Origin: Candidatus Woesebacteria bacterium
GTDB taxonomy: Bacteria > Patescibacteriota > Microgenomatia > UBA1400 > UBA1396
DNA length: 64,000 nucleotides
Reading direction: 5' to 3'
NCBI GenBank assembly: GCA_021208605.1
Contig: JAJOJK010000003.1
Coordinates: forward strand, 9,481-73,480
Part shown: piece by piece, positions 14,478-55,318 of the stretch
How positions within the stretch are numbered: the stretch's first letter is position 1
Layout: every line of letters starts with the position of its first letter
Notes under the pieces: model-generated
Told to the model about the DNA's origin: nothing
Databases searched by the model: none
The model's input: the letters and a program-made list of their open reading frames with translations, nothing else
Translations under genes and position numbers: made by a program

Positions 14478-14494
14478 GTGAGGGACCGACCCTC
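14478..14494. repeat. REP type A variant (GTGAGGGACCGACCCTC), left arm of inverted pair
   Basis: Perfect 17-nt inverted repeat with 14651-14667. Immediately follows the lysS stop codon. Confidence 0.6.
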
Positions 14495-14640
14495 AAGCTT
14501 TTAATAATTTCTTATAAGCTTTTACAATAGGCCAAAAGCAGGAATTTGCATCATACGTTCCGTCTTGCCCTTCGAGTAGCTTACAAGTACACACTTGGAT
14601 ACATACAAATTTCAGTCACAGATTGCTTTAAAAATGATTG

Positions 14641-15204
14641 TTATAGGCCTGAGGGTCGGTCCCTCACCTGCTTTCTCCCGCTTAGCCACAGCGCCAGCGC
14701 AAATCGCACTAAATACGCATACGCTTCTTCCCGCGGAATCACGCCCTCAGTCAGGTACCCAAACATACCGCCCTGTTGATTGGTGTTCGTTTTCCCTTCA
14801 ATCTTGTCCATTACTTTCCCGAGCTCTTCGCCGGAGGCGAGTCCATCGACAATATACTGCGGCAGAGCGAAGCGGTTTCCAGCCAGGCTTTGTTGTTTGC
14901 CCGCGCGATCCTCAATATGTACCCAGACAATCGACTGTAACTCTTCACCAACAGACATCAAACCGCCCTCGAGTCCGAAAGCCATGTCCACGCTCGGGTC
15001 TGCTTCCAGAACAGCCAGTGCGCGATTGCGGGCACCTTGGCGCGTTTCGTCATCGGAGTACGGCTGATCGCTGACGCCACTCTCGACTGAGTATCCCTGG
15101 ACTTCATACTCAACAGACTCTCCCCGTCTGGAAAACACAAACTCCACCGCCGACTGCACGGCCGCCACTTTTACTGGATTGGTACTTCCCACGCCTATCT
15201 TCAT
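14641..15204 (-). CDS. yjjX: inosine/xanthosine triphosphatase, YjjX family
   Basis: MKIGVGSTNPVKVAAV...SGVSDQPYSDDETRQGARNRA matches YjjX family signatures. The start ATG at 15204 overlaps the sufU stop (ATGA). Confidence 0.75.
   Translation of the reverse strand: MKIGVGSTNPVKVAAVQSAVEFVFSRRGESVEYEVQGYSVESGVSDQPYSDDETRQGARNRALAVLEADPSVDMAFGLEGGLMSVGEELQSIVWVHIEDRAGKQQSLAGNRFALPQYIVDGLASGEELGKVMDKIEGKTNTNQQGGMFGYLTEGVIPREEAYAYLVRFALALWLSGRKQVRDRPSGL
14644..14667. repeat. REP type A (TAGGCCT-GAGGGTCGGTCCCTCAC)
   Basis: TAGGCC palindrome plus AGGG-TCGGT-CCCT hairpin. Overlaps the last codons of the YjjX-like gene. Confidence 0.6.
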
Positions 15205-15629
15205 TGCTGCTCCCTTTCTGCACTCCCTTGTACTACTGCCCAGTCCTCGCCACTGCGCAGCCCTTGCCAAAATAACAACGCACACTTTTGTCGACTTGGT
15301 GAAATATGCAGCAACTCCAGTTCTCTCAGTACATCCTCCGCTGACATACTTTCCCATTTTTGTATTGATGAACCAACTAATTTTTCGCTCAGCAAACTCG
15401 CCGCCGCAGTGCTCACTGCGCAGCCATCGCCTTGCCAAGTAACCGCTTTTATAATTCCTGCTTCATCAATTTTCAAAAAAATTTCCAGGGAATCACCACA
15501 ACTCGCATTCGCCGCTCGCATAACAAAAGTAGCATCAGGCAACTCGCCCCAATTGCGAGGATGTTGCGCGTGTTCCAAGATGTGTTCGCGGTATAAATCG
15601 TCCACGGAAGCTCCTCGACTAGACGCCAA
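15201..15629 (-). CDS. sufU: Fe-S cluster scaffold SufU/IscU-like
   Basis: DLYREHILEHAQHPRN plus conserved Cys residues (ASCGD, GDGCAVS). Located downstream of sufS. Confidence 0.75.
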   Translation of the reverse strand: MASSRGASVDDLYREHILEHAQHPRNWGELPDATFVMRAANASCGDSLEIFLKIDEAGIIKAVTWQGDGCAVSTAAASLLSEKLVGSSIQKWESMSAEDVLRELELLHISPSRQKCALLFWQGLRSGEDWAVVQGSAEREQQ

Positions 15630-16869
15630 AAATGGTTTGTACTTGTTCTAAAGCCGCAATTAACTGATCAATATCTTCGCGCGTGTTATACACCGCAAAA
15701 CTAGCGCGCGTGGTGGCGACCCAGTCTTGCTCGGTATGCAGTGGCATCGTGCAGTGATGGCCAGAGCGAACGGCCACTCCAGAGCGATCTAAAATTTGCG
15801 CCACATCGTGCGCGTGGACGCCTTCGTACGTCCAGGTCACAGAACCAACTCGCGAGGCAAACTCTGCACCCGGCTCCGGACCAATCAACCGCACCTGCGG
15901 CACCTGCTGGAGCTGCTCATAGGCATACTGCACCAAATCGTGCTCATGCGCTTGCAACTCGGACCACCCAATCTCTTCTAAAAACTCGATCGCCGCTTGC
16001 AACCCAACCAAACTAGCTACATCTGGAGTTCCGGCGGTAAAGCGCTCAGCAAAATCTTCATGAAAACTCGTTTCTTGGGTACGGACCTCGGCGATCATGC
16101 CGCCACCGTACAACACCGGCGCAATCTCTTGAGCCAGGCGTTCGCTCACCACCAAACCGCCGATTCCCATCGGACCATACATTTTGTGCCCAGAGAAAGT
16201 CAGGGCGTCAACCGGCCAGCGATCCAAACGACTCGGCATATGCGCAGCCGACTGAGCGGCATCAACCGCCACCAGCACGTTTTTGCGCACACCCCACTTG
16301 CGCAGTTGGGCATCAATTTTCTCGAGAGGCGCCACCACGCCAGTCACATTAGACACCGCCGCCGTGGCGACCACCCGCAAACGATCTTTTTTTTCTTGCA
16401 GCAACTCAGCAAATGCGTTTATCGGCCAGGTAGATTGGTCATCCATAGGGAGCACAATAAACTCGCAACCAGTGCGCTGCGACACCATCTGCCAAGGCAC
16501 GAGCGTGCTGTGGTGCTCTTGCATGGTAACGACGATGACGTCGCCTGGTCGTAAAAACTTTTCCCACATCTGGACGAGGAGGTTCATGGCCTCGGTGGAG
16601 TTGCGGGTAGAAATCAATTGGTCGGCACGAGCACCAAAAAAAGCTGCGATTTTCTGACGAGCTTGCTCGTAGCGCTCGGTGCTCTCGTCACTTAAAGTGT
16701 GTACGCCACGATGAACGTTGGCGTTGTGGGTGCGGTAGTAGTCGCTGATTGCGGTGATCACACTCTCTGGTTTTTGCGTGGTGGCGGCGTTGTCGAGATA
16801 GACGAGTTTTTTGCCGTGTATTTGGCGTTGCAAGATGGGAACTTGTGTCTGCGTCTCATGAACTTTCAT
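15619..16869 (-). CDS. sufS: cysteine desulfurase, SufS class
   Basis: PLP-lysine motif SGHKMYGPMGIGGL and active-site RSGHHC. Length 416 aa. Confidence 0.88.
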   Translation of the reverse strand: MKVHETQTQVPILQRQIHGKKLVYLDNAATTQKPESVITAISDYYRTHNANVHRGVHTLSDESTERYEQARQKIAAFFGARADQLISTRNSTEAMNLLVQMWEKFLRPGDVIVVTMQEHHSTLVPWQMVSQRTGCEFIVLPMDDQSTWPINAFAELLQEKKDRLRVVATAAVSNVTGVVAPLEKIDAQLRKWGVRKNVLVAVDAAQSAAHMPSRLDRWPVDALTFSGHKMYGPMGIGGLVVSERLAQEIAPVLYGGGMIAEVRTQETSFHEDFAERFTAGTPDVASLVGLQAAIEFLEEIGWSELQAHEHDLVQYAYEQLQQVPQVRLIGPEPGAEFASRVGSVTWTYEGVHAHDVAQILDRSGVAVRSGHHCTMPLHTEQDWVATTRASFAVYNTREDIDQLIAALEQVQTIFGV

Positions 16870-16896
16870 GAGTGTAGTATACCGTGGGATAAAAAC

Positions 16897-16926
16897 TTGA
16901 CTTTGGGAATTCTTTCAGTTTATATT
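16897..16926 (+). promoter_or_regulatory. sigma70-like promoter (TTGACT-18-TATATT) for the small gene at 16937
   Basis: TTGACT at 16897-16902 and TATATT at 16921-16926. Very short leader. Confidence 0.3.
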
Positions 16927-16936
16927 TCAAACATTA

Positions 16937-17181
16937 TGGAAACACAACAAGTCCTCCCTTTCAAAGAACGAATGCTCGCTGCTTTTGATACTGCGACAAC
17001 TCTTCCCGACGGCACCCGTCAAATAAATCTCGAAAAAGAACTGCGTCCTTTGTTTAAGACCTCTCTTGAAACAAGGGGTTTCAGACCAGTAGGTATAAAT
17101 ACCACTGGTATTACTATTCCGACTACTGTAAATAGAGAAGTGTATCAATACACCGTCGATCAGGTAGAAAAGAATAAGTAA
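16937..17181 (+). CDS. hypothetical small protein (81 aa)
   Basis: Internal start METQQVLPFKERML of track ORF 16699..17181. Divergent from sufS. Confidence 0.4.
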
Positions 17182-17222
17182 ACTCACCGTCCAATCTTCG
17201 CCCTGTGCTACAATCCTGAGAT

Positions 17223-18443
17223 ATGCGTATTGCGATGTACACGGACGGGTTTTACCCTTATGCAGGAGGAGTCAGCACTGCTGTACTCGCCCTAGCTGAA
17301 GAACTTGCCAAACAAGGTCATAGTATATTTATTCAGGCTCCACGGCCAAAAGGGGATGTCGATACGAGTTGGATGCATCCGAACATCACCGTAAACTATG
17401 TTCGATCGAGTGAAGTTTTTATCTATCCTGATTTTCGGATCGGCACAAAGATGCCAATCTTTATCGATACGGTAAAAGAATTTAACCCAGATATTATTCA
17501 TGTTCATACGCCGCTCAGCATTGGACTAGAAGGCATACTCGTCGCGAAACGACTGAAGCTTCCGTTGGTGCAAACTTTTCACACTTACTTCATGGACCAA
17601 GAGTACATGCGTTTATTTGGAATCCAGAATCAGCGACTCGCCAATCTCTTTACGAACGGTGGCTGGAAACTCATGAAGCTAATGTCTCGTCTATTCAGCG
17701 TCACGACCGCGCCGAGTCATTATGTGGAAAATGACTTACTCAATCGCAATGTACCGGGCGCTGTTGTGTACTGTCCGAATATTCTGCCCAATCACTATTT
17801 TGCCCCACACCCACGCCGAAAAGGAGATGTCCGCTCTTTCTTGTTTGTGGGTCGCTTAAGTCCAGAGAAACGAGTCCACATACTCCTGCAGAGTTTTGCT
17901 GAGGTCTTAAAAACCAATCCAGACAGAAATGTAGAACTGCAAATAGTGGGTGATGGGCCGGATCGTGAAGAGCTGGTGAATCTCGCTTTTGATCTTGGTA
18001 TTGCTCGCTCCGTACGCTGGCATGGCAAAATACCACATCAGGAACTCATTGACGAACACTTGTATCACATGAGTGATGTATTCATTACGGCAAGCCGCTT
18101 TGAAACGTTTGGCTACACGACTTTAGAAGCCATGGCCCATGGTCTGCCGGTCATTGCTCACGCCTACCGGGCCAATACCGAACTTATTGACGATACTGGA
18201 TATCTTGTTCCAGATACTGAGAGCGTATCCGAATCAGTTACTCTGCTCGCACAAGCAATGCAGCAGTGTCTGCATGATGACATTGCAGAAAAGAGAAAAG
18301 CCGCATACCAACGCGCTCAACAGTATCGTCCAGAAGAAGCCATTCCTCATTACGAAAAAGCCTACGATTTAGCTCGACAACTCCATCCACAGACCGCTAC
18401 TGTCGAAGAAATCGATCCATCAGAAATTGAGAATATAGCGTAA
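17223..18443 (+). CDS. glycosyltransferase family 4
   Basis: EX7E region [20 protein letters not shown] and the GT-B fold pattern. Confidence 0.8.
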
Positions 18444-18445
18444 AC

Positions 18446-19031
18446 ATGTCCAAATTCATCTTCATCGGCCTCGGAAATCCTGGTGACCAATACGCCAACA
18501 CACGGCATAACGCTGGTTGGCTCGTGCTCGATGAGCTAATCAAACTGTGGCAAGATCCGGCCATTCCGGCCGCGTGGCGGTATGAGAAAAAAAATTTACG
18601 GCGAGGTACTCAAGCTGACACATGGACAACACGAAATCATGTGCGTCAAACCGGATACCTACATGAATGAGTCCGGTCGAGCTGCTTTGGCGGCCGTCAA
18701 ATGGTTTTTCGACATTGACCCAACGACTCGTGACCAAACACCGCTGCGCAATGTTGTTGTCCTGCACGACGATCTCGATATCGTCACAGGAGAATACAAA
18801 CTCAAATTTGCTTCTGGGCCACGAGTGCACAACGGTTACAACAGCGTGACGGAAGTGTTACATACCAATCAGTTTTGGTCGGCGCGCATTGGCATAGACT
18901 CCCGCGAGGGAGATCGTTCCATGCCTGGCAAGGCGTATGTCCTGCAAAAAATGCAACCAGAAGAACGCCAGAAATTACGCCAAACCGCCAAAATACTGGC
19001 TGAAGAACTCCCCTACGTCGTGCTACAGTAA
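18446..19031 (+). CDS. pth: peptidyl-tRNA hydrolase, frameshifted at an A8 tract
   Basis: N-terminal [25 protein letters not shown] (track ORF 18446..18670) continues in the +1 frame (ORF 18582..19031: IYGEVLKL...PDTYMNESG...). The frames join at AAAAAAAA 18587-18594. A7 would give a continuous Pth. Confidence 0.75.
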
Positions 19032-19036
19032 AAAGC

Positions 19037-20276
19037 ATGTCTTGGCGCAGTAGCTTTCACGAATTTTCTCGGCATCACGCCCTGCCACAGGAGCTGCGGC
19101 ATTTTTTCTTTGGTATTTTTTTCTACCGTTTAGGTGCCGGTTTGATTTCTTTGACCGGCCCACTGTTCCTTTTTACGATCGGCCAAAACTTTCCCTGGCT
19201 GCAAAATGTGCCTTTGAACACAGTGTCAAAAGGTCTTTTTTTTGTGTTTGCGTCCTATCTTTTGGAACGGTTGTGGATTCTCCTGCTCACCCAACCGATT
19301 GCACGCTGGATTCCCCGCATCGGATTCCATACCAGTATGGTGTTAGGACTCTTATTTTTATCCGCCCGCACTGCGCTGTTTGACTTCTTTTTGCGCGTCC
19401 CGAGTTTATGGCCGTTAGCAATGCTCTTGGCGGCCCTTGGTGTGCAGTTCTTCTGGATTGGATACCACACTTACTTCACTCTGGAAGCAAAAAGTTCGAA
19501 AATTGGCAGTGAAGTGGGCGGCATTGAGTTTATGTCTCGTTTGGCTCAGGTGTTGACCCCACTTCTTGGAGCACTTATTGCCGGCACATTTGGATTCGCC
19601 GTTTCCTTGTGGACCGGTATCGTGCTCTATGGAGTTGCCATTGCTTTCTTACTGCACTTACCGAAACTACAGTCCAAATATTCTTGGCAGTGGAGTGATT
19701 TCTGGCAGTGGCTCACTGACCGTGACCTGCGTCGAACCACCTTGGCCTTAGCTGCGTACACTTGGGAAGAACTTGGCGTCATCGTCTTTTGGCCCATATT
19801 TTTGTTTATTACTTTCGGCAACGTGGAGTCAGTGGGGTATATTTTGTCGACCGCTTCTTTTCTGTCTTTACTGTTTATTTACTTGTCCGGTTGGGTTTTC
19901 GATCACAAGAAAAAAACGTATCGGCAGCATTCAAAAAATGAGCGGTATTCTCCTCAGCTTTTTGTGGATTCCGCGACTCATTTTTGCTGGTTCGCCAGTA
20001 GTGTTGGTGCTAAACGACGCCATTGATCGACTCACACACAGCGTCTATTCAACACTGTTTTATGCGTCCATGCTCTTTTGCGCGCGGGGCAAACATGTCT
20101 ATCGATTTTTTGTAAATCGCCAAGTCGCGATCAGTCTCTTGTGGAGCGTTTTATTGTTGCTGAGCATGGCACTCCTCTTCCTGCACTGGAACTGGATACT
20201 CCTCTTTGCCAGTTTCTTTGGAGCCGGTATGATGAGCTTACTCTTCACCAAAGAAGTCAAAAAACTCAAACTGTAG
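19037..20276 (+). CDS. MFS-type transporter, frameshifted at a poly-A tract
   Basis: Multi-TM protein split between track ORFs 19037..20026 and 19773..20276 (+1). Frames can be joined at A7 (19910-19916) or A6 (19933-19938). Confidence 0.6.
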
Positions 20277-20283
20277 TATCCAT

Positions 20284-20628
20284 ATGAGTGATTCATCATC
20301 GCTGCAACAATTGTTGCAAAACTACTCAGTCAAAAATCAAGATGATCCGAAATACATTGCCCACGAATTTCAGGACTTTGGGTACCGCATGGCCATGGAA
20401 CTCACCAATCCCAACGATCGCGAAACCATCAGTATGTGCATGGGCTTGGCCAAAAGAAAACCGCGCGCGCTTCTTGAACAAGCACTCAGCTACATCAAAG
20501 ACGCCAAAGCCAAAAACAAAGTCGCGCTTTTTCTGTGGAAAATAAAGGAACTGGAAAAAGAGAAACAGGAAAAGTCAGCAGAAAAGAAGAAAAAAGAACC
20601 ACAACAGACAGCTCTTCCCTGGGAATAG
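20284..20628 (+). CDS. hypothetical protein (114 aa), Lys/Glu-rich C-terminus
   Basis: Open frame with no recognisable motif. Confidence 0.4.
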   Translation: MSDSSSLQQLLQNYSVKNQDDPKYIAHEFQDFGYRMAMELTNPNDRETISMCMGLAKRKPRALLEQALSYIKDAKAKNKVALFLWKIKELEKEKQEKSAEKKKKEPQQTALPWE

Positions 20629-20635
20629 TGCTCTC

Positions 20636-23743: not shown

Positions 23744-23745
23744 AT

Positions 23746-30255: not shown

Positions 30256-30420
30256 AAAAATATTGCAGGCCCACTAGGATTTCACGACTCCGTTCGCTCC
30301 CGCGAACTCCGCATGCACTAGGGTTGTTTCGCATTTCTTCTATTTCGGTATGCTCACCCCGTCGGAACCTTGTAGCTCCCAACCTCTGCGCACCAGCCAA
30401 TAAAAAAACCGCCGATGGCG
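30256..30420 (-). mobile_element. tRNA-linked ~145-bp element, copy 2
   Basis: Exact 18-bp duplication of the tRNA-Trp 3' end (gcaggcccactaggattt at 30255-30272, identical to 30423-30440). Same conserved core (30273-30356) and a terminator hairpin (A7-ccgccgatggcgg-T6) at 30392-30419. Confidence 0.6.
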
Positions 30421-33150: not shown

Positions 33151-33182
33151 TTACGTCCTTATAACAGAGGGTCTGACCCTAT
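33151..33182 (-). repeat. hairpin repeat type C (AGGGTCAGACCCT + CTGTTATAAGGACGTAAGCA) directly 5' of start codon
   Basis: The sense strand reads AGGGTCAGACCCTCTGTTATAAGGACGTAAGCA-ATG. Confidence 0.55.
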
Positions 33183-33880: not shown

Positions 33881-33902
33881 AGGGACCGACCCTTAGGCCT
33901 AG
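33881..33902. repeat. REP type A (AGGGACCGACCCT-TAGGCCTAG)
   Basis: Canonical copy. Confidence 0.65.
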
Positions 33903-33916
33903 AACAAAAAAACCGC

Positions 33917-33934
33917 GGCCTAGGGGTGTCTCCC
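33917..33934. repeat. REP type B (GGCCTA-GGGGTGTCTCCC)
   Basis: Perfect 18-nt inverted repeat with 35299-35316. The pair brackets the glycosyltransferase gene. Confidence 0.65.
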
Positions 33935-35298: not shown

Positions 35299-35319
35299 GG
35301 GAGACACCCCTAGGCCTAT
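35299..35319. repeat. REP type B (GGGAGACACCCC-TAGGCCTAT)
   Basis: Inverted partner of 33917-33934. Confidence 0.65.
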
Positions 35320-35335
35320 AAAAAACAAAAGCCCC

Positions 35336-42153: not shown

Positions 42154-42969
42154 TTATACTTGAGGCGTTTCTATATCCTGAGGCGTGCTCTGAGTCGGAG
42201 ACGTTGGGGTCGCGGTCGGCGTGGGTGTTGCTGTCATCTGGCTCGTGTTGGGTAGATCGGGAGCGGCGGTCAGAGTTTCGTCTGGAACAGCTGATCCAGC
42301 GCGGCGGCTATTTCTCCACCAGGCCAATCCGGCCACAACCGCTACCAGGGCGGCTAAGACGCCAATCAACAGCGTTCCGGGATGGAAGAGTGCGGGTGAG
42401 GTGACGTTTTCGAGGACTTGGTCGTTGAGAGAGTCGTCGGCCATCATGCCACTATCATCGGTCAGCACTGCTTCGGGGACCAGAAATGCGTACTCGTTTT
42501 GACCGGTGTAGATGTTACCTTCGGAATCGGTACCGGCCACAATCGTGTTTTCAGGATCGAGGGTGACAACCATCTCGCCAGTGGCTTCCGGGACAAAACG
42601 AAACGCCACGACGGGCATTTCGGGTTGCAGAGTCACGGACTCAGCTAACTCAGTCGGTGCCAACACAACGCTGAAGGCGTCGCCAGAAAACGTTTGACTG
42701 ACAACTTGAAGATTGGCGTCACTAAATACTTCCACTTCCCAGTCCGTCACCGGCACGCCGGTCACGGTGCCAACAAGTTCCAGACCATCGATCGCTTCGT
42801 CAGAATTGACGGAGACGATAACTTCGGAAACTTCATCCACGAGCAAGTTTTCTTCGAGGGTGAAGGACGCAGCGAACGCCGGCATGGCGGTGAGAGCCAG
42901 TACGCTGGCGACAACACCTGTGGCCGTGGTCAGGCGGGCTGTTTTTTGCATCCAAGATGTGATCTGCAT
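42154..42969 (-). CDS. surface protein with cohesin-like domain and TM anchor
   Basis: Signal peptide, cohesin-like beta-sandwich block (SVNSDEAIDGLELVGTVTGV), TM LLIGVLAALVAVVAGLAWW, Pro/Thr-rich tail. Confidence 0.5.
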   Translation of the reverse strand: MQITSWMQKTARLTTATGVVASVLALTAMPAFAASFTLEENLLVDEVSEVIVSVNSDEAIDGLELVGTVTGVPVTDWEVEVFSDANLQVVSQTFSGDAFSVVLAPTELAESVTLQPEMPVVAFRFVPEATGEMVVTLDPENTIVAGTDSEGNIYTGQNEYAFLVPEAVLTDDSGMMADDSLNDQVLENVTSPALFHPGTLLIGVLAALVAVVAGLAWWRNSRRAGSAVPDETLTAAPDLPNTSQMTATPTPTATPTSPTQSTPQDIETPQV

Positions 42970-42981
42970 GGGCTCCCTTAC

Positions 42982-44445
42982 TTACTTTCTCAGTCTGTTC
43001 AATACGAGGGCGTAGTCGATGATATCGACGGTGCCGTCTTGGTTGATGTCAGCTTGGGCATCGGTGGTCAAGAGACGACGACGGATGTATGACAAGTCGA
43101 TAGTATTCACTTTGCGGTCACGGTTCGCGTCATAGTTAGCTCTGAAAGGTGGCTCTGGCGTTTCTGACACACAGCTCTGTACAACTGGCTCCGGTGTACC
43201 GAGACAGTAGTTACTGTTGGCGGTGGCTTTACGAGTCTGGATGCCAGACTTACAAGCAGACCACTGCGTGTAGGTGTACTCACACGTCGGAGTATTTTGG
43301 GTGATCATCGGAATAGGACGCGTGGTGGCAACTGGAATCGAGCCATCTGGATTTGTCGGAACTAGTCCGACTGGCGGAGTCGGTCGCAAACGGATAGAGT
43401 TATCACTAATTGTGGTACTTGGCGGAGTTGGCTGAGGAGTTGGAGACACCGACCCAGTAAGAGCACAGATTTGGGCTGGCATTACTTGAGCACAAGCCAA
43501 GCCATCAGGACATTCTGGCATGGGTGGCTGGTAACAAAACAGGCCTGGTTGGCAATCCGCATTTACAGAACAGTACTGTCCTTCTGATCCCGGAGCTGGT
43601 GTTGGGGTGGGTGCAGCCGTGGGTGATGGAGTGGGATCGCCGGGAGTAACTGGGTTTTCCGACACGATAGGAGAAGGTGTTGGAGTAGGCGTTGGCGTCA
43701 TGCGTGGATTCTCGATCGGATCAACCATTGCAATTGGCGTGGGCAGTGGTTGTACTTCTCCATCGATTACTTCAGCACAGATTTTGGCTGGCATCACTTG
43801 CGCACAAGCCATACCTTCCGGACATTCTGGCATGGGTGGCTGATAGCACACTAGACCAGGAGCACACTGTGAATCTTGCACACAGTTGCTTCCGGCTGGC
43901 TTTTGAATACTGACGATGTCATCGGATCCGAGTACCCGACCAGAAAAGGCGACTGGTGTCTTCAGTTGGTCTTCAGTTTGACGGAAGAGAGTTGCTTTTG
44001 AGGTACCTGGGTTCCAGGTAAGCGACAAATCTCCTTCAGACTGCGGCACAAAACTGATGGTAGCAATTTGTGTCGGTTGAGAAGCGGAAAAGGCTTTTTT
44101 TGAATTATTCAGTGTAAATACGAGTTGGATGGTGCCGTCGTCATTGACTTTGTTGACTTGGGCTTTGAGATTCGTGCGCTCGGCGTTCGCAACTTGGACG
44201 GTAATATCGCTCACGTCAACTCCGGTGAAATTGCCTTCCAGTTGAAGGGCATCCATGTTGGCGCTGTTGGAGTTTACAAAAAGATCAATTTTTGCCGGCT
44301 TGCCAGCAATGATTTGCTCGGAAGATTTGGCGGTAATTTCTATGGCGCCATCTTCTACCGAAGCTTGGTTGCGCACATCTTGAGAACTTTGGGATAAAAA
44401 GAAGGCAGCGGCAGCTCCGATCAATAAAACGAAAACAAAGGCCAC
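42982..44445 (-). CDS. surface protein with cohesin-like N-domain, two 37-aa Cys-rich repeats and C-terminal dockerin
   Basis: Type I dockerin repeats DANRDRKVNTIDLSYI and DINQDGTVDIIDYALV. Duplicated C(V/S)xxxxCxPGLxCYQPPMPECPxGxACAQVMPAxICA module. PTPTP linkers. Confidence 0.6.
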   Translation of the reverse strand: MAFVFVLLIGAAAAFFLSQSSQDVRNQASVEDGAIEITAKSSEQIIAGKPAKIDLFVNSNSANMDALQLEGNFTGVDVSDITVQVANAERTNLKAQVNKVNDDGTIQLVFTLNNSKKAFSASQPTQIATISFVPQSEGDLSLTWNPGTSKATLFRQTEDQLKTPVAFSGRVLGSDDIVSIQKPAGSNCVQDSQCAPGLVCYQPPMPECPEGMACAQVMPAKICAEVIDGEVQPLPTPIAMVDPIENPRMTPTPTPTPSPIVSENPVTPGDPTPSPTAAPTPTPAPGSEGQYCSVNADCQPGLFCYQPPMPECPDGLACAQVMPAQICALTGSVSPTPQPTPPSTTISDNSIRLRPTPPVGLVPTNPDGSIPVATTRPIPMITQNTPTCEYTYTQWSACKSGIQTRKATANSNYCLGTPEPVVQSCVSETPEPPFRANYDANRDRKVNTIDLSYIRRRLLTTDAQADINQDGTVDIIDYALVLNRLRK

Positions 44446-44586
44446 TCCTGCTATAAGGCTTTTATTTTTTTTTTACAAAATTGACTGATTTTCATAGGTA
44501 CACTAAGAATTGCATGCTCCGAAATGGAAGTCAATATTGAGAACGCGTTGGAAATTTGCCACTAAAAACCTCTAAGAAAATTTTAA

Positions 44587-44607
44587 CGGCCTAAGGGTCG
44601 GTCCCTC
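44587..44607. repeat. REP type A (GGCCTA-AGGGTCGGTCCCT-CA)
   Basis: Directly downstream of the pgk stop. Confidence 0.65.
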
Positions 44608-44616
44608 ATGAGAGTG

Positions 44617-45648: not shown

Positions 45649-45670
45649 AGGAGGTATTTTAACATACGAA

Positions 45671-45691
45671 TAGGGAGCACCCTTGGGCCTA
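45671..45691. repeat. REP type A variant (AGGGAGCACCCT-TGGGCCTAT)
   Basis: Degenerate copy between ribokinase and pgk. Confidence 0.45.
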
Positions 45692-45696
45692 TAAAA

Positions 45697-46614: not shown

Positions 46615-46652
46615 GGGTTTTAGTGTAGCATGCGAGGGACTCTGCGAGGTAT

Positions 46653-46677
46653 GTGAGGGACCGACCCTTAGGCCTAG
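46653..46677. repeat. REP type A (GTGAGGGACCGACCCT-TAGGCCTAG)
   Basis: Canonical copy. Confidence 0.65.
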
Positions 46678-46690
46678 ATAATTAAAATGC

Positions 46691-46710
46691 CGGCCTAGGG
46701 GTGTTTCCCG
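46691..46710. repeat. REP type B variant (CGGCCTA-GGGGTGTTTCCCG)
   Basis: Adjacent to a type A copy, as at 33881-33934. Confidence 0.5.
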
Positions 46711-46713
46711 AAT

Positions 46714-48041: not shown

Positions 48042-48118
48042 ATGAGTCAGTGTAGCATATTTGGACTCGAGGAAAAACGCGAGTTATAGGCTTTTCAGAC
48101 CTTGTAAACCTTATAAAC

Positions 48119-48610: not shown

Positions 48611-48642
48611 AGGTGTGTTTTCTCTCTTTTGTTGTCTTTTTA

Positions 48643-48664
48643 TAGGCCTAAGGGTCGGTCCCTC
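48643..48664. repeat. REP type A (TAGGCCTA-AGGGTCGGTCCCT-C)
   Basis: Canonical copy. Merges into the 8-bp tandem array. Confidence 0.65.
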
Positions 48665-48765
48665 TCTATCTCTCTATCTCTCTATCTCTCTATCTCTCTA
48701 TCTCTCTATCTCTCTATCTCTCTATCTCTCTATCTCTCTATCTCTCTATTTCTCTATCTCTATAC
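48663..48765. repeat. tandem repeat (TCTCTATC)x~12.9
   Basis: Ten perfect 8-bp units, one variant (TCTCTATT), one more perfect unit and a partial unit. Lies between the rpiB start and the VIT-family stop. Confidence 0.9.
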
Positions 48766-49524
48766 TATAAACCGCTCCACCAAAACACCCAACACATACG
48801 CGGCAACGGCGGCGATCGACCCCACTCCCAAAATTTCCAGACCATTCTTCCACCAAGATCCACCAGTGAGGCGGGTCCGGAGTGAGCCCACTAAAAAGAG
48901 GGCCGCTAAAGTCATGCCAATAGAAATGGGGAACTGCATACGAGCCGCCACGGGCACACCCACTGCAGCCACCATGTATGGCAACAATGGCAGCGCACCC
49001 GCCACTACAAAAGCTGCAAACGTGGCAACACCCGTTCGCCACAGGTGTTCAGCCCGCTCGGGAACCGCTCCCATCTCTGACTGGAAACCAAGCTCAACCA
49101 TATGGTCCGGGTTCTTGGCGTGTATCTCAACCAATTTTTTTGCATCATCCGCACTGTATCCTTTTTCTCGATACATCTGAAAAATTTCTTCTTGCTCAAT
49201 TTCTGGAATCTTTTTGTACTCCCAAGCTTCCATGGAAAGCTGACGCTGTTTGAATTTTTCCTCCGACACAGATCCTAAATAATCGCCAATACCCATCGAA
49301 AGTCCGTCGGCAATCATGTTTGCGATTCCCAAAATCAAAATGACATCAGCCGAAAGCTGCGCTCCGGCAACACCTGCCACGACAGCAAACGTTGTCACGA
49401 TTCCATCATTGGCACCATATACTGCCGCCCGCAAGAGATCGCCGGCGACAAACCCACCATGCAACGACATTTCCTGGCCGGTAGCATGGAGGTGTTCAAG
49501 GTGTTTTTTCGTGGGCTTTTGCAT
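48760..49524 (-). CDS. VIT/CCC1 family iron/manganese transporter
   Basis: LRAAVYGANDGIVTTFAVVAGVAGA N-terminal motif and C-terminal TM helices. Confidence 0.8.
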   Translation of the reverse strand: MQKPTKKHLEHLHATGQEMSLHGGFVAGDLLRAAVYGANDGIVTTFAVVAGVAGAQLSADVILILGIANMIADGLSMGIGDYLGSVSEEKFKQRQLSMEAWEYKKIPEIEQEEIFQMYREKGYSADDAKKLVEIHAKNPDHMVELGFQSEMGAVPERAEHLWRTGVATFAAFVVAGALPLLPYMVAAVGVPVAARMQFPISIGMTLAALFLVGSLRTRLTGGSWWKNGLEILGVGSIAAVAAYVLGVLVERFIV

Positions 49525-49581
49525 GACTTCAGTCTACAGAATTTATTGCTATTCACCAAATACCTCAGTAATTCTCAGGTA

Positions 49582-49932
49582 TCAGAATCCCAACTCCGCT
49601 CTGGCCTCTTCGCTCATGTCCTGCAGCCTCCAGGGTGGATCAAAAGTGAGTTCGGTGATGATGTCCTTTTCCGGTTGGATTTTTTTGGAATCGAGCAGCT
49701 CATCGGGAATAATTCTGGTGAGCGCTTGCTGTACTTGGTGCTGAATCATTCCTGCCAACGGGCAACCTGGAGTCGTGAGTGTGTAAACAATGCGGATTTG
49801 GAAGGCATCGTCAGTCGGAATCACCTGCACTTTGCGAATAAATCCCATCTCGACTATATTTAGGTGCGTTTCTGGATCAAGAACCGTTTTGAGTTCGTTG
49901 CGAATCTGGTCTTCGGATATGGAAAGCGACAT
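49582..49932 (-). CDS. DUF59/MIP18-family Fe-S assembly protein (SufT-like)
   Basis: IRNELKTVLDPETHLNIVEMGFI...TTPGCP. Confidence 0.7.
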   Translation of the reverse strand: MSLSISEDQIRNELKTVLDPETHLNIVEMGFIRKVQVIPTDDAFQIRIVYTLTTPGCPLAGMIQHQVQQALTRIIPDELLDSKKIQPEKDIITELTFDPPWRLQDMSEEARAELGF

Positions 49933-49938
49933 AGATTC

Positions 49939-51747
49939 CTACGCCACCCGAATTTGTTTGAGTTCATCGAGTGTAGTGGCCTGCTCAACGGACTTGTCAT
50001 CACGGAACTTGACTAATCTCGGAAAACGCAGCGCAAGCTTCGCTGTATGTAGTGGCGACTGCGTAATTTCGTCGGCTGCTACCTCAACCACCAAACCAAG
50101 TGGAACCAGCACATCCGGTTGTAGTTGATCAGGAATAACAGTTTGGAAATCATAATTTTTTATAGATTTTGATTGCTTTTCGTGCAGAGAGTCGCAACGC
50201 ACTTTCATTTCTCTCCACTGATCATCGGTAAGGCCAGTCCCAATCTTGGCGAGAGTCAAAACAGAATCATTTTTTGAGTCGAGAATGCCAACCAAAAAAG
50301 CGCCAATACCAAACTGAGTTCGCTTACCGCGGCCATAATAATATCCTAAAACAATCGCATCAATCGTATCGGTAAGCTTGGCCTTGCTTCCTTCTTTTTC
50401 TTTGAGCTTCACCCAATTGAACGATTGTCGACCAGACAAGTACTCACCGTGGGATTTTTTAATGACTGCACCTTCCAACCCAGCTGTCAATTGTTCTTCA
50501 TGAAAAACTTTTAGCTCTATGGGGTCGGAAGTTGTAATGTATGGTGCAACAACTACTGTATTTGTTTTTGCAGAAATTATGTGTTCGATAATTTCTTTCC
50601 GTTGATCGAGTGGGATATGCATTTGCGACTGGCCGTCTTTGAACAATACGTCGAATACAAAAAACCGCAAAGGTATCGTTTCCGCCATTTCCGCAACTCC
50701 ATGCTTGCGTTTACGTTTGATGGTCGTCTGGAAATTCACTAGCTGATCTGTCTCGGGATCATAGCCTACGGCTTCGGCATCAAATATAACGGATTCTACA
50801 GGGAGTTCGAGCAAATCTTGTTTCAACTCTGGAAACATTTCTGAGTTTTCATCCAAATTTCGCGTAAAAGTTTTCACTGTTTCGGTTCGTGCATCCCAAT
50901 GAATTTGGACACGCGTACCATCGTACTTGGGTTCGGCAATCACCTTTCCCATCTTTTCGATCATCTCTTCAGTGGTTTTTAAGCGATCACAAAGTGCCGG
51001 CAAAATAGGAGTCCCAAGAGCAACATCGAGTTTTCGCGCAGCCTCGATACCGCCAGAGCGAACGTGCTGTGCAATCACACCAATATCTGGGTGACGCTGA
51101 TAGACTTCGTCGAGTGCATGCCGCTGCGATTTGTCACCTGCCATATACCATGACAGAGCATCGAGAATAGTTTTGTCGGAAACACCCAAACGCATGTCTC
51201 CCAACAAGATACGCGCCACGTAACGAGCCGACAGCGGCTGAAGCTGACGCAAAAGTTTTGCCACCACATGGATCTTCTCTTCTTGACTGCCCTCACCGCT
51301 GATTTCGGTGATTTGCCACAGGCGATCAAACACATCGGGCACCGTGAGGTCGGCGAAAGTGGAGTTGTGACTCGTAGTTACAAGTTCTTTGAGCACTTCT
51401 TCGGCCAGCAATCCGATATCACCGAGCCGTTTATAGCGCTTGGACAAAAGTTTTTTTTGATCTTCTACAGCAACATTATTTACCGCTTCACCAAAAAGAT
51501 TCTCTGCTAACTCCGCTTTCAGTGGCTGCAACTCGGCCAACGAGTACAGCATAAACTGCACCCCAAACTGAAACTGCGGATTCCGAAAATTCGGACCCAT
51601 TTGTCCGAGCAGTAAATAGAGATACTTGTCGATTTCTTCTGCCGCGATTTCCGAGAACATCTGAGCCAACAACTCGGTCTGCGCGAGCTTTTTGCTGGTG
51701 TCTTCTAGCGGCTGTAAGTATTTTTCGGCGAACTGGTGGAACTGCAT
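49939..51747 (-). CDS. lig: ATP-dependent DNA ligase
   Basis: KYDGTRVQIH adenylation motif I. 602 aa with an OB-fold C-terminal domain. Confidence 0.85.
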   Translation of the reverse strand: MQFHQFAEKYLQPLEDTSKKLAQTELLAQMFSEIAAEEIDKYLYLLLGQMGPNFRNPQFQFGVQFMLYSLAELQPLKAELAENLFGEAVNNVAVEDQKKLLSKRYKRLGDIGLLAEEVLKELVTTSHNSTFADLTVPDVFDRLWQITEISGEGSQEEKIHVVAKLLRQLQPLSARYVARILLGDMRLGVSDKTILDALSWYMAGDKSQRHALDEVYQRHPDIGVIAQHVRSGGIEAARKLDVALGTPILPALCDRLKTTEEMIEKMGKVIAEPKYDGTRVQIHWDARTETVKTFTRNLDENSEMFPELKQDLLELPVESVIFDAEAVGYDPETDQLVNFQTTIKRKRKHGVAEMAETIPLRFFVFDVLFKDGQSQMHIPLDQRKEIIEHIISAKTNTVVVAPYITTSDPIELKVFHEEQLTAGLEGAVIKKSHGEYLSGRQSFNWVKLKEKEGSKAKLTDTIDAIVLGYYYGRGKRTQFGIGAFLVGILDSKNDSVLTLAKIGTGLTDDQWREMKVRCDSLHEKQSKSIKNYDFQTVIPDQLQPDVLVPLGLVVEVAADEITQSPLHTAKLALRFPRLVKFRDDKSVEQATTLDELKQIRVA

Positions 51748-51774
51748 GGTTAGTCTAGTGTAGCAGACTTGGTA

Positions 51775-51797
51775 GAGGGACCGACCCTTAGGCCTAG
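51775..51797. repeat. REP type A (GAGGGACCGACCCT-TAGGCCTAG)
   Basis: Canonical copy. Confidence 0.65.
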
Positions 51798-51849
51798 AAA
51801 AATAAAATGGCGGACAAAAAAACTCACCAACTCAAAAAGAAACACCGTT

Positions 51850-52959
51850 CTACTCCAACGTGTAATGCACGCCCTTCGTCACACCATGTTTTTTAACGAG
51901 ACCCTTATCAATTAAGTCTTTCAAGTCGCGCAAAATGGTGTCCGTTGAGATCATCGGCAAAATTTCATTCAAGTCACTACTGGTGGCTTTGCCCTGTTCT
52001 TGCAAGTACTCCATCACGATCAGCTGACGCTCACTCAGGGCAACCTGATGTCCCAACTTTTGATGCAAGCGAAAATCTTGCGACAATTTCAATACTTGCT
52101 GCTTGATGCGATCCAGCTCAATCGCCAAACCGTAGGAAAAGTACTCCAGCCAATAAGTCATGTCATTGTCTTTACTATTTTGCACCGAACGAATGGCCAG
52201 ATAGTAGTTTTCAATATCGTTGTCGAAATACTGTTCAAGAGAGAAAAATCTTTTGACATCAAAGTCTTCCGCGTACATGAGCGCCAACGCCATCGCACGA
52301 GCGGTCCGGCCATTTCCTTCAATAAACGGGTGGATGTTGACGAGTTGATAGTGCGTCACAGCCGCTCGGAACACAACGTGCTGGCGACGAGCAGCATCAC
52401 TATTGAGCCACTCCAAAAACTCCTTGACTAGACCAGGGACCGCTTCTGGTTCCGGCGGTCGGTGCACAACTTGCCCAGACTCGACACCACGAACAATCAC
52501 TTTATGATCGCGATACGTGCCGCACTGATCCGGAGCAATAATGCGATGCACCGAAATTGAGTGCAGCGTTTTCAGCATATCTTCGGTGTACTTCGGGCGC
52601 TCGCCTTCTTGCAGGCTTTCTCCCCAGGAGTTTATCCAGTCGAGCACGGAACGATAGTTAATTATTTCTTGAATATCTCTGGCCTTGCCGACAATACCGG
52701 CGCCGCTGGCCACTTTTTCTGGGTCGGTCCCTGGAATACTGAGGACTCGCTCCGCCTGTTCTTGGCTGAGTTCATTTCCTTCCAGGCGAGTGCCGTGGTA
52801 CACGGTCCGGACCATGGCTTCTTCTTGAAATTTGGCTTCCCAGGCGGGAACGATGGGGGCATTTTTAATAACTTCACGCGACGCCTCGATGCTCGCGATG
52901 TACTGCAGCAGATTGTTAGAAATCTGAAAATTGGGACGAAACGTGCTCATACTGCACAC
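51850..52959 (-). CDS. Fic family protein
   Basis: HPFIEGNGRTARAMALAL Fic motif. C-terminal winged-helix-like region. Confidence 0.85.
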   Translation of the reverse strand: MCSMSTFRPNFQISNNLLQYIASIEASREVIKNAPIVPAWEAKFQEEAMVRTVYHGTRLEGNELSQEQAERVLSIPGTDPEKVASGAGIVGKARDIQEIINYRSVLDWINSWGESLQEGERPKYTEDMLKTLHSISVHRIIAPDQCGTYRDHKVIVRGVESGQVVHRPPEPEAVPGLVKEFLEWLNSDAARRQHVVFRAAVTHYQLVNIHPFIEGNGRTARAMALALMYAEDFDVKRFFSLEQYFDNDIENYYLAIRSVQNSKDNDMTYWLEYFSYGLAIELDRIKQQVLKLSQDFRLHQKLGHQVALSERQLIVMEYLQEQGKATSSDLNEILPMISTDTILRDLKDLIDKGLVKKHGVTKGVHYTLE

Positions 52960-53072
52960 TTACTGTAACATAATTCTTGCAGTGATTGCAATAATGAGTG
53001 GGTGCGGTGGTGGAGATTTGGCGGATTTTTGGTTAGGGTTTTGGTTGGAGTTTTGGCCAATAGATATTTTTT

Positions 53073-53096
53073 CTAGGCCTAAGGGTCGGTCCCTTT
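53073..53096. repeat. REP type A (CTAGGCCTA-AGGGTCGGTCCCT-TT)
   Basis: Supplies the stop codon and the last six codons (EKGTDP*) of the Nnr-like gene. Confidence 0.65.
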
Positions 53097-54122
53097 CTCC
53101 ACCTCACGCCACGCGTGCGGCACCATCTCGACTAAGTCGGAACTGTTAAACATCGTTCCGTGCTCTTGATAAAGCATGTGACCAGCGAGTTTATTCAAGT
53201 AACTGGCCACCACTGTCGAGACAAACGGTTCTGAAGTTGCCAAAAAGCCAACCAGGCTACCGGCAAGTACATCGCCGGTGCCACCTTTGGTCATGCTGGC
53301 ATTGCCGCCGCTTACAAGAACCAGTTCGTTCTCATTCCAAATGATGTCGGTAGGTCCTTTTACTAAAAATGTCGCGTTCCGGCACTCTCTGGATACTTCG
53401 AACAAAGCTGACAACTGAGTTTGAGAAAGAGGCACCTCACGAATAATTTCTGGAGGTCGAGAAAAACCTGTCGGCGATTGAGAGAATTGAGAGAAAAGAC
53501 GAGCGGCATGCTGCAAAAGTACCTCTCTGTCATGATCCAGAAAACGATGAATCGTTTCTTTCGCCGTATCAGGGAGTTTATGCGACAGGCGGAGAAATTC
53601 TTGGGGATGTGGTGTCAGCACGGGTTTTTCAGGGAACCACTCGGGGTGAATGACTTGCAACGCCCCGGCATCGATAACCCATTTTTTGCCCGTGCCGAGA
53701 GCAGTCAAAACACGAGTCACAGCGATGGTGTCGTTTTCCCAGTCGGCGTCGGAGAGGTCTTCGTGACGAATATCATGTAGTTGCGTTTCCGTAAATCGAC
53801 TGGCAAAATCGCGACGCATACCAGGTCCGATCAAAATGCTATCGGCTTCGGCGATGTACGCGGGAAGTTCCCGGCGCGGCACTACCACTCCGTCATGAGC
53901 ATAGAACTTGGCGTCGTAGAGCAGTTGATTATTCTCGGCTACAGAGCTATAGAAGGTCATATCGACCAGGCGCGAAGCGGCTAAAAAACTCCAGCGACTC
54001 GCGGCGTGAAACAGATCACTCCCACCAATAATGAGCGCTTTGCCATTCTGTCCCTTATGAGAATCGGAGCTGGGAAACTGGAGTTGGCGAATATAATCGT
54101 GAATAGTGGAGCGAGTAGACAT
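53079..54122 (-). CDS. nnrD: ADP-dependent NAD(P)H-hydrate dehydratase (YjeF C-terminal domain family)
   Basis: SHKGQNGKALIIGGS and GGTGDVLAGSLVGFLA motifs. The start was set at MSTRSTIHDY to avoid overlap with recF. Confidence 0.75.
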   Translation of the reverse strand: MSTRSTIHDYIRQLQFPSSDSHKGQNGKALIIGGSDLFHAASRWSFLAASRLVDMTFYSSVAENNQLLYDAKFYAHDGVVVPRRELPAYIAEADSILIGPGMRRDFASRFTETQLHDIRHEDLSDADWENDTIAVTRVLTALGTGKKWVIDAGALQVIHPEWFPEKPVLTPHPQEFLRLSHKLPDTAKETIHRFLDHDREVLLQHAARLFSQFSQSPTGFSRPPEIIREVPLSQTQLSALFEVSRECRNATFLVKGPTDIIWNENELVLVSGGNASMTKGGTGDVLAGSLVGFLATSEPFVSTVVASYLNKLAGHMLYQEHGTMFNSSDLVEMVPHAWREVEKGTDP

Positions 54123-54144
54123 GCGACCATTGTCTCGCAAATGG

Positions 54145-55178
54145 TCACTCAAATAAAGAAGGATAGCCTTCCTCGACGGTAGTGATGATGGCTTGCGAAC
54201 GCGTGGCGGCATCTTGAATGAGTTCTTGGTTCATTTCGTCGAGCTCGGAAAAGACGTCGTCGAGCAGAAGCACTGGCAGCTCTTGTCGTTTTTGTTCGAT
54301 GTACTGCACTTCGGATAACTTCCACCAGGCTAACGCGAGGCGTTGTTCACCGCGAGATCCGTAGCGCTCAATATCGCGCCATTCGCTGCCGCGTTTGACT
54401 CTCACGATGACATCGTCTTTGTGGGGACCGACTAAGGTGTAACCCGTGGACAGCTCGGCGCGTTCGTATTTTTTGATGCGTTCTTCGGAAATGATGGAGT
54501 GGTCGTACTCAACTTGGTACTCTTCTTTGAAACCTGGTTGCTGGTCGAGCCAGTGAAGGAACTCTGCTCTGGCCTGGTGGAGTATTTCGCCATTGTCGAT
54601 GAGAAGCTGGTCCCAATAGAAAAAATCTTGGCGTTGTGCTTCGCCTTCTCGCAGTGCTCGTAAAAGACGATTCCGCCGCCGGAGGGCTTTGTCGTAGTTT
54701 TTGCGCGCTCGTCGGTACTCGATGGAAACTTGGTCGAGTAAGGTGTCTAGCAAGTGGCGGCGCGCAGTGCCGCCACTCTGAAACAACTCCATATCTTCTG
54801 GCGTAAACACTACCGTAAGAAGTTGCCCCGTGGCATCGCTGGCTCGACGACTGACACCGTTGACGCGATAGAGACGCTTATTCGTTTTTTTTGCCTTGGA
54901 GAATACCGTGGGTAAAGAGTTGTTCGAGTTTGGTTTCGTCGCCTTTTTTCGTCTTGGAATTTGGCCATGACACGAGCGAGTTCTTCATCCCACTCGATCA
55001 GTTCATCGGTTTGCTTGGCGCGCCAGGATTGGCCGGTGGACAGGAGGGCGAGAGACTCGATGAGGTTGGATTTACCGGAGCCGTTGGGGGCGGTGAAAAC
55101 ATTCAGGCCTGGCTCAAACGACCAGGTGTGGTCGGAGATGTTGCGGAAGTGTTGGAGCCAGAGTCCAGTAATGATCAT
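54145..55178 (-). CDS. recF: DNA replication/repair protein RecF, frameshifted at a T6 tract (plus-strand coordinates)
   Basis: N-terminal Walker A APNGSGKSNLIESL (track ORF 54810..55178) and the remainder (track ORF 54145..54810). The frames join if the T6 at 54944-54949 were T7. Confidence 0.75.
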
Positions 55179-55200
55179 GGGGAGACACCCCTAGGCCTAT
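55179..55200. repeat. REP type B (GGGGAGACACCCC-TAGGCCTAT)
   Basis: Perfect 22-nt inverted repeat with 55297-55318, spaced 96 bp. Abuts the recF start codon. Confidence 0.65.
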
Positions 55201-55296
55201 ATCTTTTTTATTTTCTTTAGTATATCTCAAGAGGGCGCGTTATTGGCAGATTCGTTAGGATGAAAAAATGAAAAAAGCGCTGATAGTATTGGAGTT

Positions 55297-55318
55297 ATAG
55301 GCCTAGGGGTGTCTCCCC
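55297..55318. repeat. REP type B (ATAGGCCTA-GGGGTGTCTCCCC)
   Basis: Inverted partner of 55179-55200. Lies 9 bp from the lepA stop. Confidence 0.65.

Follow-up and report, generated by a model that had tools for sequence, protein, structure and literature searches.

Dispersed palindromic repeats resembling REP/BIME elements in the intergenic spacers of a Candidatus Woesebacteria genome

The locus and its repeat units

A 64-kb stretch of DNA (hereafter the window, at its full length) from a metagenome-assembled genome (MAG) of the Patescibacteria, or Candidate Phyla Radiation (CPR), labelled Candidatus Woesebacteria by NCBI, carries a family of short palindromic repeat units dispersed through its intergenic spacers. 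Together with ~8 kb to its right, the window provided ~72 kb of one genome for the analysis. Its Pfam content is that of a bacterial chromosome segment (LGT, LepA, AsnRS, SmpB, Pth, ATP-dependent DNA ligase, PGK and GAPDH, and further Rpe, RpiB, PilN/PilO and a ComEC-like protein), and dnaA lies ~5.6 kb past its right end. CPR genomes are small, streamlined and generally regarded as repeat-poor; coding density in the window is 89.6%, leaving 10.4% as intergenic DNA. Direct reading of the sequence finds a TGnTA(C/T)A(C/A)T box in most window genes, and because this -10-type box stands only 6-10 nt before the ATG, the mRNAs would appear to be leaderless or near-leaderless.

The window matches contigs of GCA_021209405.1, GCA_021208155.1 and GCA_021208925.1, as well as Logan contigs of SRR12390696 and SRR12390700, at 99.94-99.99% identity, and single-base homopolymer indels are the sole differences between it and these sister assemblies. 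The indels (at 54885, 54944, 51932, 58146, 58078, 57667, 45677, 48652 and 45402) appear to be errors of sequencing or assembly in one record or another; two of them break recF into open reading frames (ORFs) 54145-54810 and 54810-55178, a gene that is intact, at 343 aa, in the other assemblies.

The family comprises 14 units of ~22-24 nt in the window, eight of type A, five of type B and one hybrid. Each unit consists, in order, of an AT-rich run, a palindromic tag, (T/C)TAGGCCTA, and a hairpin head of 13 nt, which is AGGGTCGGTCCCT in type A and GGGGTGTCTCCCC in type B; aligned, the units share the consensus (A/G)GGGT-NNN-TCCC(T/C) after the tag. The core stem is 4 bp (three invariant G-C pairs and one A-U or G-C pair), reaching 5-6 bp in some copies, and closes a loop of 5 nt.

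These motifs far exceed chance in the window: AGGGNNNNNCCCT (AGGGN5CCCT) matches 13 times against 0.55 expected, a count reached by no shuffle, and TAGGCCTA matches 8 times against 0.37 expected. With up to 3 mismatches allowed, the joint pattern GGCCTARGGGTSKSTCCC finds 13 units and misses the fourteenth, at 45672-45694, because of a 1-nt homopolymer deletion in the window; a sister assembly (L001) reads GGCCCAAGGGTGTCTCCCT there. A covariance model built from the units and run on the window, on the 8 kb to its right and on four relatives recovers exactly the 14 units, at 28-43 bits, with the next match at 11.8 bits, and detects no further or decayed full copy in the window or the 8 kb beyond it. 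The repeat family described by the first-pass annotation is therefore real, and its coordinates hold within a few bases, while its count of at least 15 copies is revised to 14 by the model. The units are as follows.

14476..14499, minus strand: unit A-variant, hairpin AGGGACCGACCCT at 14481-14493, tag degenerated to AAGCTT, 34.3 bits; begins 3 nt past the AsnRS stop codon
14641..14669, plus strand: unit A (TAGGCCTG + AGGGTCGGTCCCT), in the last codons and stop of the NTPase_I-T gene (14641-15438, minus strand)
33881..33901, minus strand: unit A, promoter-side half of heterodimer 33881-33934, upstream of tRNA-Tyr
33915..33934, plus strand: unit B, stop-side half of the same heterodimer, abutting the TAG stop of a 444-aa gene
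35299..35321, minus strand: unit B, single, in the spacer that separates the stop of a 737-aa gene from the 444-aa gene's promoter; pairs in inverted orientation with 33917, on the far side of that gene
44586..44606, plus strand: unit A with tag CGGCCTA, 10 nt past the PGK stop codon
45672..45694, minus strand: hybrid unit with tag TAGGCCCA, A-type stem and B-type loop, between the PfkB stop and the PGK promoter, 31.5 bits
46656..46676, minus strand: unit A, promoter-side half of heterodimer 46656-46709, upstream of PfkB
46690..46709, plus strand: unit B (GGGGTGTTTCCC), stop-side half of the same heterodimer, 4 nt past the stop of a LOG-family gene
48641..48663, plus strand: unit A, single, between VIT1 and RpiB
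51776..51822, minus strand: unit A (51776-51796) and decayed partner, in the Fic->DNA ligase spacer
53040..53094, plus strand: unit A (53072-53094) and decayed partner (TTGGCCAA); the Carb_kinase ORF reads through the unit
55178..55319, no strand assigned: B+B homodimer, 141 nt, tail-to-tail, filling the lepA->recF spacer; one arm begins 8 nt past the lepA stop and the other abuts the recF ATG

Two of these units adjoin local features of another kind. In the VIT1-RpiB spacer, the 3' edge of unit A 48641-48663 is the exact starting point of a perfect tandem array, (CTCTCTAT)x12.5 at 48662-48761. Unit A 44586-44606 stands at the PGK edge of a variable block (window 42154-44445) that encodes a 487-aa dockerin-domain protein and a 271-aa protein; PGK and GAPDH are adjacent in one syntenic relative (L067, 17329-17399), with no such block between them, and in another (L074) two other small ORFs occupy the position.

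Placement and transcription

An intergenic bias, which the first-pass annotation had put forward for checking, is pronounced within the window: 12 of the 14 units are wholly intergenic, and the remaining two extend into an ORF only at its last codons (14641-15438 and 53079-54212). Because intergenic DNA makes up only 10.4% of the window, simple arithmetic from this share puts the chance of such placement at ~1e-12. The convergent or tandem gene context noted in the first pass extends to the whole family, with all 14 units in co-directional or convergent spacers and none in a divergent one. Its placement of the copies at 3' ends holds for the eight units on the stop-codon side of their spacer (within 10 nt of a stop or overlapping it), and fails for the six on the promoter or start side of the next gene. 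In the case of unit 53072-53094 the tag itself ends the upstream gene, the Carb_kinase stop codon being the TAG of TAGGCCTA.

The first-pass annotation proposed that the copies act as terminators or mRNA-stability elements. Selected transcription terminators or mRNA 3'-end stabilisers would accord with the stop-proximal position of 8 of the 14 units and with the stable hairpins that the dimers described below can form; in E. coli, repetitive extragenic palindromic (REP) sequences are known to stabilise upstream mRNA (PMC3733652). Like Rho-independent terminators, moreover, the units place a GC-rich hairpin just past a stop codon. They differ from such terminators in having no T-run past the stem in either orientation (the U-run of the dimers lies inside the loop), in a short and weak stem, in occurring in both orientations to transcription (8:6) and in lying, in 6 of 14 cases, on the promoter side. 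For single units the folding energy is only -4 to -8 kcal/mol (z +1.1 to -1.6), no better than shuffled sequence, and none was called by a terminator scan of the window. Ordinary GC-hairpin terminators with T7-9 runs are present after tRNA-Ile and tRNA-Trp and at ~7.5, 33.7, 42.1 and 57.2 kb, while relatives manage with spacers of 33-56 nt and no such element. Because single hairpins are weak and without a T-run, and because canonical terminators are used elsewhere in the genome, termination is not supported, and we regard selection for either transcript function as an unlikely origin of the family. An effect of the dimers on mRNA, through stability or processing, is possible.

Two further candidate functions were rejected. 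A role as promoter parts disagrees with the distance from hairpin to -10 box (TGnTACACT/TACAAT type), which varies over 0-31 nt, and with half of the units having the wrong orientation. Avoidance or enrichment of a restriction site finds no footing in the frequencies of GGCC (0.83) and AGGCCT (1.35), both unremarkable against Markov expectation. A scan of the window against Rfam gave no match other than three tRNAs.

Dimer architecture and folding

All dimers are tail-to-tail, with their TAGGCCTA sides facing inward. In both B+A heterodimers (33881-33934 and 46656-46709) an AT-rich linker of 15 nt joins the halves, and both show the same GGCC-N17-GGCC spacing, which occurs only three times in 64 kb; the third occurrence, at 53055, lies beside unit A 53072-53094. 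At 51776-51822 the corresponding spacing is GGCC-N17-GGAC, and the linker matches that of the 46656 dimer at 12 of 15 positions. The two apparently single units at 51776 and 53072 are therefore dimers with a decayed partner.

The inverted pairs reported in the first pass are confirmed, two of them in somewhat longer form. Arms 14476-14517 and 14628-14669 are 42 nt long and 81% complementary with a perfect 20-nt core, and the units within them, 14476-14499 and 14641-14669, make up a 194-nt tail-to-tail A+A pair between the convergent AsnRS and NTPase genes. Arms 55178-55204 and 55293-55319 are 27 nt long, 96% complementary and separated by 88 nt. The third pair, 33917-33934 and 35299-35316, is perfect over 18 nt and brackets the 444-aa gene, which had been called a glycosyltransferase; that identification is not sustained, as the product has only a sub-threshold Pfam match to DUF6938 and none in NCBIfam or the PDB.

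Whether as RNA or single-stranded DNA, each heterodimer forms a single imperfect hairpin through pairing of B with A, at -29.2 kcal/mol (z -2.6) for 33881-33934 and -24 kcal/mol (z -2.8) for 46656-46709. The B+B homodimer 55178-55319 folds as RNA into a ~25-bp near-perfect stem at -58.8 kcal/mol (z -9.5). The cores enclosed by the pairs measure 15, 88 and 110 nt and have no sequence in common.

Inverted ends around a variable core, with 27-nt ends that are 96% complementary in the 141-nt element, raise the possibility that the units are the terminal inverted repeats of an insertion sequence (IS) elsewhere in the genome, the 54-, 141- and 194-nt pairs being miniature inverted-repeat transposable elements (MITEs) and the single units solo ends. 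Correia elements of Neisseria (CREE/NEMIS) are MITEs sited in spacers, and a likeness to these and other spacer MITEs is seen in 55178-55319, with its inverted ends of ~26-27 nt, its position in a co-directional spacer and a long double-stranded RNA stem suited to RNase III. In contrast to such elements, no pair shows a duplication of TA or of any other target, most copies are not full pairs (5-8 of the 14 units are solo), and the internal sequences are unrelated to one another. The commonest dimer, moreover, has unlike ends, B and A, and no full-length IS or transposase was found in the 72 kb. We therefore consider descent from IS ends improbable.

Inverted repeats in the lepA-recF spacer are not confined to the window. 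In three genomes this spacer is bracketed by long inverted repeats of unrelated sequence, at 6066-6242 in L073 (49 nt, 80%), at 6255-6318 in L074 (18 nt, 100%) and at 55178-55319 in the window (27 nt, 96%), each with one arm just past the lepA stop and the other just ahead of the recF ATG. The spacer of L067 is 36 nt long and has no inverted repeat. These repeats may reflect a structural need that is conserved, or a site favoured for insertion.

Comparison with relatives and public sequence data

Of the four syntenic relatives, the closest examined is L067, whose ligase is 74% identical to that of the window and whose gene order, lepA-recF-CarbK-Fic-ligase-FeS-VIT1-RpiB, is the same; the ligases of L068, L073 and L074 are 58-60% identical. 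A and B units are absent from all four, by the covariance model as well. The relatives' spacers are 33-56 nt long, without such elements, and those of L067 are consistently shorter than their counterparts in the window.

lepA-recF spacer: 36 nt in L067, 148 nt in the window
CarbK-Fic spacer: 56 nt in L067, 119 nt in the window
Fic-ligase spacer: 34 nt in L067, 102 nt in the window
VIT1-RpiB spacer: 52 nt in L067, 149 nt in the window

Subtracting the 54-nt dimer from the LOG-PfkB spacer leaves ~45 nt, an ordinary spacer with an intact TGCTACACT promoter. The longer spacers fit the signature that insertion would leave.

Public data returned no second bearer of the unit. A scan of genome contigs gave one chance match, in a Gammaproteobacteria MAG of 66% GC; a scan of metagenome contigs gave 62 single matches, of which ~20 are an unrelated repeat of gutless-worm-type metagenomes and the rest have unrelated flanks; and a scan of viral contigs gave three single matches, none related. 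In the literature searched, neither Patescibacteria nor Woesebacteria turned up as hosts of published REP or MITE elements, and PMC3733652 describes no REPs from the Patescibacteria.

The most serious rival to a mobile origin is that the units are DNA binding sites of a host protein, origin-proximal and recognised either by a nucleoid or segregation factor, as parS sites are, or by a dyad-operator repressor. It owes this rank to the lack of decayed copies among near-identical units and to the confinement of all units to a 41-kb stretch, 14-55 kb from dnaA. Each unit also presents two adjacent dyads (TAGGCCTA and AGGG-N5-CCCT), the second of which recurs with a free loop in a further class of units described below. 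Against this, the units are missing from the four syntenic relatives despite conserved flanking genes, none lies in the 17 kb nearest dnaA, and their distance to the -10 box is variable (0-31 nt). Dimers and decayed partners do not readily fit operators, parS-type sites do not typically avoid coding DNA so strictly, and the units show no likeness to parS (a TGTTNCACGTGAAACA-related 16-bp palindrome), for which a parS-like pattern has 2 matches against 2.5 expected. On balance we judge that binding sites, too, are unlikely.

Comparison with known repeat systems

REPs of Proteobacteria form heterodimers and tail-to-tail or head-to-head dimers, lie within 20 bp of gene 3' ends, carry tags that give TAG stops and may be present as several families per genome (Di Nocera et al. 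2013, PMC3733652). Their super-families are defined by a GTAG or CGTC tag, and their stems span 5-13 bp, mostly 6-9 (PMC3733652). The units described here resemble REPs and the bacterial interspersed mosaic elements (BIMEs) built from them in consisting of an unpaired tag and a stem-loop, in being extragenic and near 3' ends, in a tag that supplies a TAG, in occurring singly and as inverted dimers, including heterodimers of two types with a short conserved linker, and in being species-specific, with several families possible per genome. As in REPs, all 14 units, a copy number taken from 72 kb, are extragenic or in terminal codons and lie between unidirectional or convergent genes. The BIME arrangement of two types in inverted orientation about a short conserved linker is found at 33881-33934 and 46656-46709, with remnants at 51776-51822 and 53040-53094. 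On these structural grounds (PMC3733652) the REP/BIME likeness proposed in the first pass stands.

The units also differ from REPs. The tag here is an 8-nt palindrome, TAGGCCTA, preceded by A, C or T; GTAG or CGTC abuts the stem in none of the 14 units; the stem is 4-6 bp with a 5-nt loop; and the host belongs to the Patescibacteria, with a small number of copies, 14 in 72 kb. Membership of the classical REP super-families is thus not established.

REPINs, as Bertels and Rainey reportedly described them, are REP doublets that form hairpins and are associated with REP-associated tyrosine transposases (RAYTs), whose genes the repeats typically flank. The units are like REPINs in that inverted doublets fold into one hairpin, in that the doublet is likely to be the replicating unit and in that many singlets are apparently decayed doublets. 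They are unlike them in a spacer of 15 nt in the commonest dimer and of 15-110 nt overall, and in doublets that are mostly heterodimers. No RAYT (Y1 HUH transposase, PF01797-like) was found by Pfam match in the window ORFs or flanking loci (~72 kb).

One reading of a different kind starts from the genes of the window, which encode a ComEC-like protein, PilN/PilO and pilins: the units could be DNA uptake sequences that favour same-species DNA through the ComEC/pilus machinery. In Neisseria, DNA uptake sequences (DUS) often stand as inverted pairs after genes. DUS and uptake signal sequences (USS) occur about once per kb, however, and frequently inside genes, whereas the units number ~1 per 5 kb and are only extragenic; a tag that is palindromic, and the existence of two sequence types, are likewise not features of DUS. 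We know of no evidence for uptake specificity in Patescibacteria, and we consider this reading highly improbable.

A REP/BIME-like family as the favoured interpretation

Taken together, the near-identity of the copies, their extragenic placement between stop codon and promoter, their lineage specificity, the longer spacers, the inverted heterodimers, the decayed partners and the stop-supplying tags suggest that the units are probably a lineage-specific REP/BIME-like, or REPIN-like, family of dispersed palindromic repeats that has spread recently by insertion. A recent burst fits because the copies are near-identical and no intermediates exist (28-43 bits against 11.8 or less).

The primary unit would then probably be the tail-to-tail dimer with its tags inside, typically B, a 15-nt AT-rich linker and A, ~54 nt in all, whose partly complementary halves would fold into one long imperfect hairpin. 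Single units may represent independent insertions or dimers whose partner has decayed. Recent spread would have been into the sole dispensable DNA of these compact spacers, between the stop codon and the next leaderless-type promoter, lengthening them by roughly 50-100 nt. We infer that the units are or were mobile and that a gene at another locus would encode the enzyme which moves them, the obvious candidate being a hypothetical RAYT-like HUH transposase. Once transcribed, dimers might serve as barriers at mRNA 3' ends or as RNase III-type processing sites that separate cistrons; such a role would be secondary and not the reason for their existence.

Several observations weigh against this interpretation. 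Among the ~50-60 window ORFs and in the ~8 kb beyond, no transposase is detected by Pfam. The tag is ATAG/CTAG-GCCTA and not the GTAG or CGTC of the known REP super-families, and the 4-6 bp stem is at or below the published REP range of 5-13 bp (PMC3733652). Support for the hairpin from covariation is weak: the three G-C pairs are invariant, and the outer pair is A-U in eight units and G-C in two. All 14 units fall in a 41-kb stretch ending ~14 kb from dnaA, within the 72 kb covered of one genome, and the five same-strain assemblies differ by homopolymer indels only, with no presence/absence polymorphism at the units. Lastly, the absence of decayed copies would be compatible with selected binding sites too.

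If the units are indeed a REP/BIME-like family, one that has doubled or tripled many spacers in a single lineage, selfish or semi-domesticated palindromic DNA can spread even in CPR genomes. The family would also offer a handle on the separation of transcripts where leaderless promoters predominate, in an unculturable group, and on which enzyme moves repeats that lack the classical GTAG tag. Together with the duplicated sequence in their neighbourhood, the repeats explain contig breaks in short-read assemblies of the host, and they are possible strain markers.

Further palindromic elements in the window and in relatives

A third class of units, absent from the list of the first-pass annotation, has the layout AGGG-N5-CCCT + NNNT + TATAAGGACGTA, with variable loops.

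8519..8547, minus strand: class 3 unit, AGGGTTGGTCCCT + TACT + TATAAGGACGTA, between oxidoreductase and DsbA-like genes
33152..33180, minus strand: class 3 unit, AGGGTCAGACCCT + CTGT + TATAAGGACGTA, between MscL and a 536-aa gene
57139..57167, minus strand: class 3 unit, AGGGCCCAACCCT + CACT + TATAAGGACGTA, upstream of lepA
2835..2872, plus strand: degenerate class 3 unit, AGGATCCAACCCT + TACT + TATACGGACGTA, in opposite orientation, between a 189-aa gene and tRNA-Ile

Class 3 units contain CGTC, 10-11 nt from the stem. Three units in L067, of the form AGGACTGACCTT + N3-5 + TATAGGGAC (13504-13531, 13991-14018 and 8801-8826), resemble them, and across the window and L067 the class can be written as an A(A/G)GG-N5-CC(C/T)T hairpin, 3-5 nt and TATA(A/G)GGAC(GT), found at gene ends in both orientations. 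Between the two genomes the second stem pair changes from G-C to A-U, a compensatory change; because of this change, and because the loops are variable, class 3 may be an older sister family of the A and B units.

Other palindromes occupy the spacers of the relatives. L067 also has AAGGACAGTCCTT palindromes, and L068 has GCAAGGACTGTCCTT three times. In L073 (GCA_964603945.1) an 86-nt palindrome of four AAGGATCATCCTT modules (4098-4183, 9884-9968 and 16177-16268) fills three spacers within 16 kb, among them the Fic-ligase spacer, which in the window holds a unit A. Different families at the same kind of site match what selfish colonisers produce. The generic A(A/G)GG-N5-CC(C/T)T motif is only marginally enriched, with 4 matches against 1.2 expected in L067 and 5 against 1.3 in L073, and not significantly so in L068 and L074.

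A broader proposal, which we offer as speculative and rather doubtful, is that these elements belong to one clade-wide system of lineage-specific spacer palindromes, represented by TAGGCCTA+AGGGTCGGTCCCT in the window, AGGACTGACCTT+TATAGGGAC in L067, AAGGACNGTCCTT in L068 and AAGGATCATCCTT in L073, with a common A(A/G)GG-N5-CC(C/T)T dyad and a TATAR-containing tag. A vertically inherited enzyme, a RAYT analogue or another nuclease, would move them, and their dimers would act as RNase III-type insulators between leaderless cistrons.

Three AAGGT(A/T)ACCTT palindromes are clustered at 59895-59990, in the spacer between a pilin gene and a 639-aa gene, and are similar to the AAGG...CCTT palindromes of L067, L068 and L073.

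Other features of the window

Two paralogous sequences of ~110 nt, at 2575-2700 and 30262-30385 (minus strand), with an 83-nt core that is 89% identical, lie just downstream of tRNA-Ile-UAU and tRNA-Trp, between the hairpin and T-run terminator of the tRNA and a second terminator-like hairpin. Their common predicted fold shows five compensatory pair changes and has no Rfam match, and we regard them as a candidate small structured RNA. Short-read contigs of the host break at these sequences, and the Logan contigs end on the left at ~2.65 kb. The tRNA-Ile itself, at 2741-2815, has the anticodon UAU, which is uncommon in bacteria.

Right after the 1022-aa ComEC-like gene, with a 1-nt overlap, lies a 108-aa ORF for a stand-alone HNH endonuclease (12658-12984), whose similarity to the HNH region of IscB is weak and far below cutoff.

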